Source: Escherichia phage HY03
DNA: 64,000 bases
Sequence record: NC_031047.1
Reading direction: 5' to 3' (one strand)
Below, piece by piece: positions 10,479 through 11,821 of this stretch. The notes below the pieces were generated by a model. The model was not told the origin of the DNA, did no database searches, and worked only from the letters and a program-made list of their open reading frames with translations. The translations under genes were made by a program, and so were the position numbers. Position 1 is the first letter of the stretch; each line of letters begins with the position of its first letter.

Positions 10479-11042
10479 ATGATGATTAATAAAATTGTGC
10501 ATGAAATGGCTTTAAATGGAGATTCATATAAAATATCTGCCGTAGTTGAAAATTTCATACTTAATAAAGTAAAAGAATATTTCACTGATTGTTCAGTTAG
10601 TTATCAAGAAAAAATGGTTTTAACCGACGATACTGAAAAATCAAATAATTTGTTTTGTTCGAATTTTATAACTAAGAAGCGTACTAGAAGATTTGATATT
10701 GTCATTTCTCGCAATGGTAAAAAGCATATAATTGAAATTAAACACCAAGTTGGTGGAGGTACAGCTATTGATTCGGTTGGAATATATTTAGAAGATAAAG
10801 AGAAATTAAAAGAATACACAAAAACTGAAAACCCTGTGTCATTGATGATATTAGATTTTTTGCCATGCGGATATTATCCACGTAATAAATGGACAAAAAG
10901 AGAATCATTTACTGATAATCCAACCATCCAAGCAAGGTTTAATGAATATGCTAAATCACAAAACGTGTTAGTATTACTATCAAATACATATGATGAAGAA
11001 TTATATAATTCGTTTTTTGCTGCAATAAATGAGAGAATATAA
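10479..11042 (+). CDS. Hypothetical protein with PD-(D/E)xK-like nuclease motif, translationally coupled to dam
   Basis: 187 aa; FDIVIS (D73) ... IIEIK (E86, K88) with hydrophobic strand context; stop overlaps dam ATG. Confidence 0.5.
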
Positions 11043-11821
11043 TGCTAGGAGCTATCGCGTATACAGGTAATAAACAGTCATTATTACCTGAACTTAAGCC
11101 TCACTTTCCAAAATATGACAGATTCGTGGATTTATTTTGTGGAGGTTTATCAGTGTCTTTGAACGTCAATGGTCCTGTATTGGCTAATGATATTCAAGAA
11201 CCAATTATTGAAATGTATAAGCGTCTTATTAATGTATCATGGGATGACGTTTTAAAAGTAATAAAGCAATACAAACTATCAAAAACATCAAAAGAAGAGT
11301 TTTTGAAATTACGTGAAGATTATAATAAAACTAGAGATCCTCTTTTACTTTATGTTCTTCATTTTCACGGATTTAGTAATATGATTCGTATAAACGATAA
11401 AGGAAATTTTACTACTCCGTTTGGAAAAAGAACTATAAACAAAAATAGTGAAAAACGCTTTAATCACTTTAAACAAAATTGTGATAAAATAATCTTTAGT
11501 TCATTGCATTTTAAAGATGTCAAAATTCTAGACGGCGATTTTGTATATGTGGACCCTCCGTATCTTATAACAGTTGCTGATTATAATAAATTTTGGTCAG
11601 AAGATGAAGAAAAAGACCTTTTAAATCTTTTAGATTCTTTAAATGACAGAGGAATAAAATTTGGACTGTCGAATGTTTTAGAGCATCACGGAAAGGAAAA
11701 CACTCTTCTTAAAGAATGGTCTAAAAAATATAATGTTAAGCATCTTAATAAAAAATACGTCTTTAACATATATCATTCCAAAGAAAAGAATGGAACTGAT
11801 GAAGTATATATTTTTAATTAA
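11042..11821 (+). CDS. dam: DNA adenine methyltransferase (Dam, GATC class)
   Basis: 259 aa; DPPY catalytic motif; N-terminus matches T4 Dam from memory. Confidence 0.85.

Follow-up and report, generated by a model that had tools for sequence, protein, structure and literature searches.

A nuclease-fold gene coupled to dam in Escherichia phage HY03, the likely restriction half of a Dam-linked type II restriction-modification cassette of T4-like phages

Escherichia phage HY03 encodes, directly upstream of its dam gene, a 187-residue protein that we take, with moderate confidence, to be the restriction half of a Dam-linked, probably GATC-specific type II restriction-modification (R-M) cassette. 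The two genes were studied in a 64,000-nucleotide stretch of the HY03 genome (NC_031047.1), here called the window, which is a Tequatrovirus (T2/T4-type) segment; the upstream gene, R, occupies positions 10479..11042 and dam positions 11042..11821, both on the + strand. R has the predicted fold of a PD-(D/E)xK nuclease, and Dam, the M of the pair, is a D12-class N6-adenine methyltransferase (MTase). The strongest evidence for an R-M cassette is the genomic behaviour of the two genes. A type II R-M cassette is a known kind of system; what is new is a very divergent family of restriction endonucleases (REases) in an unusual setting.

R is strictly linked to Dam, and the two co-diverge as a mobile two-gene unit. 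In all nine lineages examined R lies directly upstream of a T4-Dam-like D12 MTase gene and usually overlaps it (overlap or abutment is also seen in Klebsiella phage KPV15 and in L005, L009, L010, L011 and L012), the pairing extending to L005-L010 and L012. Identity to the window pair runs through 63, 55, 48, 43 and 35-41% for R and through 71, 72, 64, 62, 55 and 52% for M. The pair occupies three unrelated loci: the interval between genes 61 and 56 in Tequatrovirus, the interval between rIIB and the topoisomerase gene in KPV15 (a Jiaodavirus), and a position directly upstream of rIIA in the metagenomic sequence L011; the primase/dCTPase interval of KPV15 contains a small membrane open reading frame (ORF) and neither R nor dam. 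In the window the REase-fold gene adjoins a co-oriented MTase gene, with a single promoter-like site upstream of both. The gene order of a type II R-M pair, on which the original prediction had remarked in HY03, is the order found in every lineage examined, and no genome with R only was seen.

R is present in 187 phage records, mostly of Tequatrovirus and including T2. The Tequatrovirus locus occurs in three states: R together with M (~147 records), dam with an R remnant (the T4 type, ~35 records), and a large empty class of hundreds of records, which makes up ~44% of those sampled evenly (for example ime09, PST, RB5 and RB18); a state with R alone was seen in none of the Tequatrovirus records surveyed. 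R and M are inherited as a unit, M being sometimes alone and R not, and a full-length R is kept in ~80% of the genomes with this dam allele; HP3, SG1 and fPS-65 are among the isolates whose R is intact. The indel unit is the two-gene cassette of promoter, R and dam (10403..11820, + strand), which is missing as a block from empty-site Tequatroviruses such as ime09 and has AATTAAT microhomology at both edges; in the blastn comparison of ime09 (L014) with the window, positions 601-903 of the former correspond to 10100-10402 and positions 904-1082 to 11821-12000.

T4 and T4-type phages lack a shorter segment of 536 bp (10419..10954, + strand), comprising the promoter and R codons 1 to ~159. By blastn, T4 (L002) 1732-2002 corresponds to window 10150-10418 and T4 2000-2138 to window 10955-11094, and T4 retains the last ~28 codons of R upstream of dam. 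Since T4 keeps this remnant, the difference between T4 and HY03 is a deletion in T4 and not an insertion in HY03. The original prediction, recalling dam of T4 as having no such partner, had suggested an inserted gene; it was right that the full gene is missing from T4, and the notion of an insertion gives way to the 536-bp loss. T2 (L004 1504-2049) and the T4 remnant (L002 2000-2085) share a G-to-A change and a T-run of T5 vs T6 at window 11010-11020. In T2 this 1-nucleotide deletion replaces the last seven residues of R (which then ends in ...NSFLLQ) and places the stop codon 13 nucleotides upstream of dam, so that the coupling is lost. As the T4 remnant shares the frameshift, the T4 deletion arose in an allele like that of T2, after the frame had shifted; laboratory T2 may not possess a fully functional copy of R.

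Other losses of R differ from the T4 type. Phage KarlGJung (MZ501089.1) has only R residues ~123-180 upstream of an intact dam, with a breakpoint unlike that of T4, and R is split into separate ORFs in ESCO58, ERS-1 and G29; on the sequence evidence, R has degenerated on several independent occasions without damage to M. Genomes with M alone are common, none with R alone was seen, and the decay of R is recurrent. An R-M pair would be expected to show this asymmetry; a free-standing homing endonuclease would not, as the nuclease gene by itself would then form the indel unit next to a conserved target.

R is a real gene under purifying selection and not a chance ORF. It is conserved over a range from 99% down to 30% identity; its ratio of nonsynonymous to synonymous substitution rates (dN/dS) is 0.14-0.40 in distant pairs, for which dS is saturated, dN is 0.006 and dS 0.117 against the T2 homologue, and the five differences from phage Shinka are all synonymous. 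The ORF matches phrog_8706, a family of unknown function, at E=6e-116. Its Shine-Dalgarno sequence, GAGGA (10470..10474, + strand; GAGG at 10470-10473), as read from the sequence, stands 5 nucleotides 5' of the ATG at 10479 and 8 nucleotides 5' of a second in-frame ATG at 10482, which would give the 186-residue form annotated in the records of most relatives. At its other end the R stop codon TAA (11040-11042) overlaps the dam start ATG (11042-11044) in a TAATG (11040..11044, + strand) that would couple R to dam; the 187-codon frame, the ribosome-binding site and the overlap all stand as originally predicted.

A promoter of its own had likewise been claimed for R. An early-promoter-like site, TTTACT-17-TATTAT with an extended -10 TG (10428..10456, + strand), was found by a consensus scan and is the candidate driver of R and dam, and in Yersinia phage fPS-65 the equivalent position bears an early promoter predicted independently by that phage's annotators, together with a terminator after gene 61. 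The generic scan for such promoters returned 10 sites where 11.7 were expected from shuffled sequences, which is no enrichment. Directly after gene 61, and inside the start of a small minus-strand ORF, a terminator-like hairpin followed by TTTTTG is found at 10354-10379 (+ strand); it would insulate the R-dam transcript from read-through out of gene 61, and the fPS-65 terminator is annotated at the equivalent place.

The AlphaFold2 model built on the R family alignment (predicted local distance difference test, pLDDT, 82.8; predicted template-modelling score 0.81) shows the alpha-beta-beta-beta-alpha-beta core of the PD-(D/E)xK superfamily, with helices at residues 3-12, 16-34, 96-105, 107-114, 148-161 and 173-186 and strands at 39-49, 67-78, 81-89, 120-125 and 164-168. 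The original prediction had read a nuclease core in the sequence FDIVIS, 12 residues, then IIEIK, and the model places its residues where such a core requires them: D73 (codon 10695-10697) lies on the second strand (67-78), E86 (10734-10736) and K88 (10740-10742) lie on the third (81-89), and E24 lies on the first core helix. All four are invariant in nine sequences reaching down to 30% identity, as are R70, H83, H89 and Q90, the residues G94-T-A-I-D-S99 of the GGGTAIDS loop (92-99), P119, S121 and D126. As modelled, R is folded like a nuclease and its catalytic triad is complete; the whole of its 187 residues forms a single nuclease domain, with no DpnI-like winged-helix reader or other extra domain.

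The structure nearest to the model is that of MunI (PDB 1D02), an EcoRI-class type IIP REase with the site C/AATTG, at 12% identity and with no detectable sequence homology; its recognition site is probably different from that of R, and it pairs with a different MTase. The search of BFVD with the R model returned an MX01 orthologue and weak nuclease-like matches at TM-scores below 0.5, and nothing else. In sequence, R and its family profile found nothing in the PDB at E<=10, and the NCBIfam search of R gave noise only. Among 24,736 Pfam families, the top match of R is DpnII (PF04556; 16.8 bits, E 0.0045), with BanI second, and the best-scoring family member, P0009, reaches 22.5 bits (E 8e-5). 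The PADLOC REase_II model PDLC03548 also matches R, at E 9.2e-5, compared with 8.5e-127 for authentic DpnII. The original prediction had named profile and structure-prediction searches as its check; they lead to a nuclease fold, to MunI as the nearest structure and to DpnII as the best family, the last below its cut-off.

DpnII/MboI, the GATC-specific type IIP family typified in S. pneumoniae, is the best and the only recurrent sequence-family match of R. Alignment of the R family with the DpnII family by hhalign gives E 8.9e-4, a probability of 23% and a score of 31.1, which exceeds all 200 column-shuffled controls (mean 15.0, standard deviation 2.6, maximum 25.4); the reversed profile scores 16.1. 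The alignment pairs E24 with E152, D73 with D201, E86xK88 with E214xN216 and the Gly-rich loop GGGT with GGS, and the core as aligned has a glutamate on the helix, an aspartate on the second strand, an E-x-(K/N) motif on the third and the Gly-rich loop after it. The DpnII bait for these comparisons served as a probe only and matched PF04556 at E 2.7e-100; proteins from the databases, P0018 (99% identical) and P0089 (named DpnII), then took its place. A model of DpnII itself (pLDDT 69) is closest to BstEII, NgoMIV and Can2, MunI ranking 43rd, and speaks neither for nor against a specific kinship with R.

Several observations weigh against placing R in the DpnII family. The gathering cut-off of PF04556 is 23 bits, and neither R nor P0009 reaches it; the R proteins of KPV15, P0006, P0011 and P0013 give no PF04556 match. 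R has no counterpart of DpnII residues 1 to ~125, the alignments spanning only DpnII ~124/140-290, and it has K88 where DpnII has N216. Because the N-terminal domain is missing, K stands for N and several family members give no match, R is not called a member of PF04556; at best it would be a minimal protein with a remote kinship to the catalytic domain of DpnII. At 187 residues it is much shorter than DpnII (288), from which it differs also by the lack of the ~140-residue N-terminal domain, by scores that all fall below curated thresholds, by a cassette order of R then M, and by its residence in virulent phages with hydroxymethylcytosine (hmC) in their DNA and not in bacteria.

The R family is small, with ~10 distinct lineages among ~15 billion proteins, and is confined to T4-like phages. 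An exhaustive profile search, run over 1.84 billion representatives with a hidden Markov model, returned 12 matches; this search, an iterated one and a scan of IMG/VR added only P0011, P0013 and P0138, and no relative from these searches bridges to bacterial REases. No description of the R gene was found in the literature, and the sole prior flag is in the GenBank record of phage Shinka, where the gene is labelled 'putative DpnII restriction endonuclease'.

Few DNA methyltransferases have received more study than T2 and T4 Dam. The window Dam is identical to them at 258/259 (T2) and 254/259 (T4, 98%) residues, has intact FCGG (residue 32) and DPPY (residue 171) motifs, and matches PF02086 at E=7.6e-51 and TIGR00571 at 1.1e-69; among PDB entries it matches T4 Dam (1YFJ/1YF3/1Q0S) at E ~1e-174 and DpnM (2DPM), the partner MTase of DpnII and of the same D12 Dam class, at E 3e-12. 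T4 Dam methylates GATC (T4 record note; PMC12707154), and the window Dam is by homology a functional MTase of this defined specificity. The GATC specificity of R is probable and derives from the Dam partner and the weak homology to DpnII. A 2025 review treats T4 Dam as one of the orphan MTases of phages and says that its function in vivo 'remains unclear' (PMC12707154); HY03 Dam has an REase-fold partner, and the T4 state is a deletion derivative of such a pair, which suggests that an R-M pair once stood where T4 now has an 'orphan' Dam.

The R-M cassette could work as follows. R and Dam would be made early from one promoter and transcript and be translationally coupled via the TAATG; Dam would methylate GATC on phage DNA and so protect it, on top of glucosyl-hmC. 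R would be a compact, probably homodimeric (like MunI), Mg2+-dependent PD-(D/E)xK type II REase, presumably cutting unmethylated GATC, its activity, specificity, sensitivity to N6-methyladenine (m6A) and target all being predictions. Susceptible DNA would be any that is devoid of G(m6A)TC, such as that of co- or super-infecting phages, under-methylated replicons and hosts lacking Dam, while E. coli DNA with full Dam methylation would escape cleavage; enterobacterial hosts being Dam+, the host chromosome is an unlikely target of R. T4, having lost R to the 536-bp deletion, retains Dam as an apparent orphan. In function the nearest analogue is R.CviAI/M.CviAI (A579L/A581R) of chlorovirus PBCV-1. 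The REase of PBCV-1 degrades host DNA. PBCV-1 is a lytic virus with its own GATC adenine MTase in an early-expressed viral R-M system (PMC7248222); it differs from HY03 in that it infects a eukaryotic alga whose DNA has no Dam methylation, whereas HY03-type hosts are Dam+ and the phage DNA is hmC-glucosylated.

GATC is the most depleted of the 256 tetranucleotides in the window, with 62 occurrences against ~215 expected (observed/expected ratio, O/E, 0.29; 0.28 on both strands), and the cassette holds one, at 11336 inside dam. This was considered as evidence for the cassette and rejected: the depletion is as strong in cassette-free ime09 (O/E 0.32; L015, 1-50000) and stronger in KPV15 (0.12; L013, 13000-60000), so that it is lineage-wide and therefore not creditable to the cassette. 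The next most depleted palindrome in the window is TCGA (O/E 0.71; 0.57 in ime09, L015). Few enzymes are reported to digest T4 DNA with glucosyl-hmC, TaqI (recognition sequence TCGA) among them. The depletion of GATC is strong for phages whose cytosines are glucosyl-hmC; in the passage of PMC5014478 that cites McClelland 1984 and Deschavanne and Radman 1991, counter-selection of GATC in enterobacteriophages is attributed to MutH and mismatch repair.

Given the recurrent decay of R, the protein might also have lost its catalytic activity or acquired another role: a left-over from an ancestral R-M cassette, it would partner dam in DNA binding or regulation, or would just be in decay. The T4 deletion, the partial deletion in KarlGJung, the 3' frameshift of T2 and the split ORFs of ESCO58, ERS-1 and G29 would all be in keeping with such a fate, as would the missing N-terminal domain of DpnII and the circumstance that no R phenotype is known and that T4 Dam, too, lacks a clear role in vivo (PMC12707154). 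We nevertheless consider a relic improbable: E24, D73, E86, K88 and the GTAIDS loop stay invariant down to 30% identity, dN/dS is well below 1, most genomes with this dam allele keep R at full length, and MunI, with 202 residues, shows that a complete REase is possible at such a size.

A nuclease of the opposite logic might be methyl-directed (DpnI-like), or indifferent to m6A and blocked by hmC, and degrade cytosine-containing host or foreign DNA; the phage would then be protected by glucosyl-hmC, and Dam would create or complete the marks of the substrate. Dam+ hosts would offer abundant targets to such an enzyme, the linkage with Dam fits a 'mark then cut' arrangement equally well, and the carrier phages do have genes for hmC and its glucosylation; in the window these are gp42 at 1225-1965 (assigned by size and position) and a 280-residue ORF of glucosyltransferase size. 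Against this, R has no reader domain of the DpnI kind, the one family that it resembles in sequence is DpnII, an enzyme that m6A blocks (PMC12707154), and protection by hmC only would make genomes with R alone viable, of which none was seen while M alone is common; a methyl-directed or hmC-blocked nuclease is accordingly given little probability. That no R-only genome was seen is also a hint that hmC alone is insufficient protection. KPV15 was considered as a phage without hmC in which Dam would be the only protection, and rejected as such, as it encodes dCMP hydroxymethylase together with glucosyltransferases.

That R is a selfish homing-type endonuclease, free-standing as are seg and mob in the T-even phages, cutting competitor genomes in or near dam or at the empty 61/56 junction so that repair copies the gene in, with its constant place beside dam reflecting the target and not an R-M partnership, is likewise given little probability, since the indel unit is promoter, R and dam together and not R alone, the R-less dam+ genomes carry a remnant of R and so arose by deletion and are not naive target sites, dam is missing from most Tequatroviruses and as a non-core gene offers no stable target, the pair co-diverges and is found at three loci that have no relation to one another, and orthodox type IIP REases are the nearest structures, while the sequence signal points to DpnII.

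In the window the genes around the cassette run in the order sp, 61.2, 61.1, primase gp61 (9166-10194), a small predicted membrane ORF, R, dam and dCTPase gp56 (11867-12400, the 3' neighbour of dam). The membrane ORF (66 residues; 10191-10391, - strand; phrog_2024, E 2e-30) is convergent with gene 61 and has, on its own strand, a strong Shine-Dalgarno sequence (AAGGAGG) and a late-promoter-like GATAAATA upstream. It is named 'RB69ORF029w' in ime09, is called a virion structural or transmembrane protein in some records, and is intact at 66 residues in T4, where AF158101.6 gives it no annotation; since KPV15 and the phages with an empty site retain it too, it counts as a fixed neighbour outside the cassette. 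In L009, a metagenomic T4-like contig, a 93-residue ORF (4010-4291) stands between this small membrane ORF and R and corresponds to the C-terminal half of a phage nucleoside triphosphate pyrophosphohydrolase (gp56-like; phrog_4856, E 9e-40). A part of the cassette-flanking gene may have been duplicated here, which would leave a trace of the insertion route.

An extension of the R-M reading, unlikely as we judge it, is that R accepts hmC or glucosyl-hmC in its substrate and cleaves GAT(hmC) that is unmethylated; the cassette would then serve as a weapon in conflicts among T-even phages. If so, a resident phage with R and M would restrict Dam-less T-even relatives and other under-methylated phages, its own DNA being protected only by Dam. 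This would supply the in vivo function long sought for the Dam of T-even phages, would account for the absence of R without Dam in spite of glucosyl-hmC DNA, and could contribute to the avoidance of GATC across these phages, the cassette-free ones included.

In these phages Dam is as a rule the downstream member of a mobile cassette with an REase-fold gene upstream, and T4 Dam, with R as the probable restriction half of the pair, would be reframed as an orphaned modification enzyme. The question of what use a restriction enzyme is to a strictly lytic, hmC-modified phage, and of what its substrate is, becomes testable; if active, R would, at 187 residues, be one of the smallest REases and represent a new and very divergent family.
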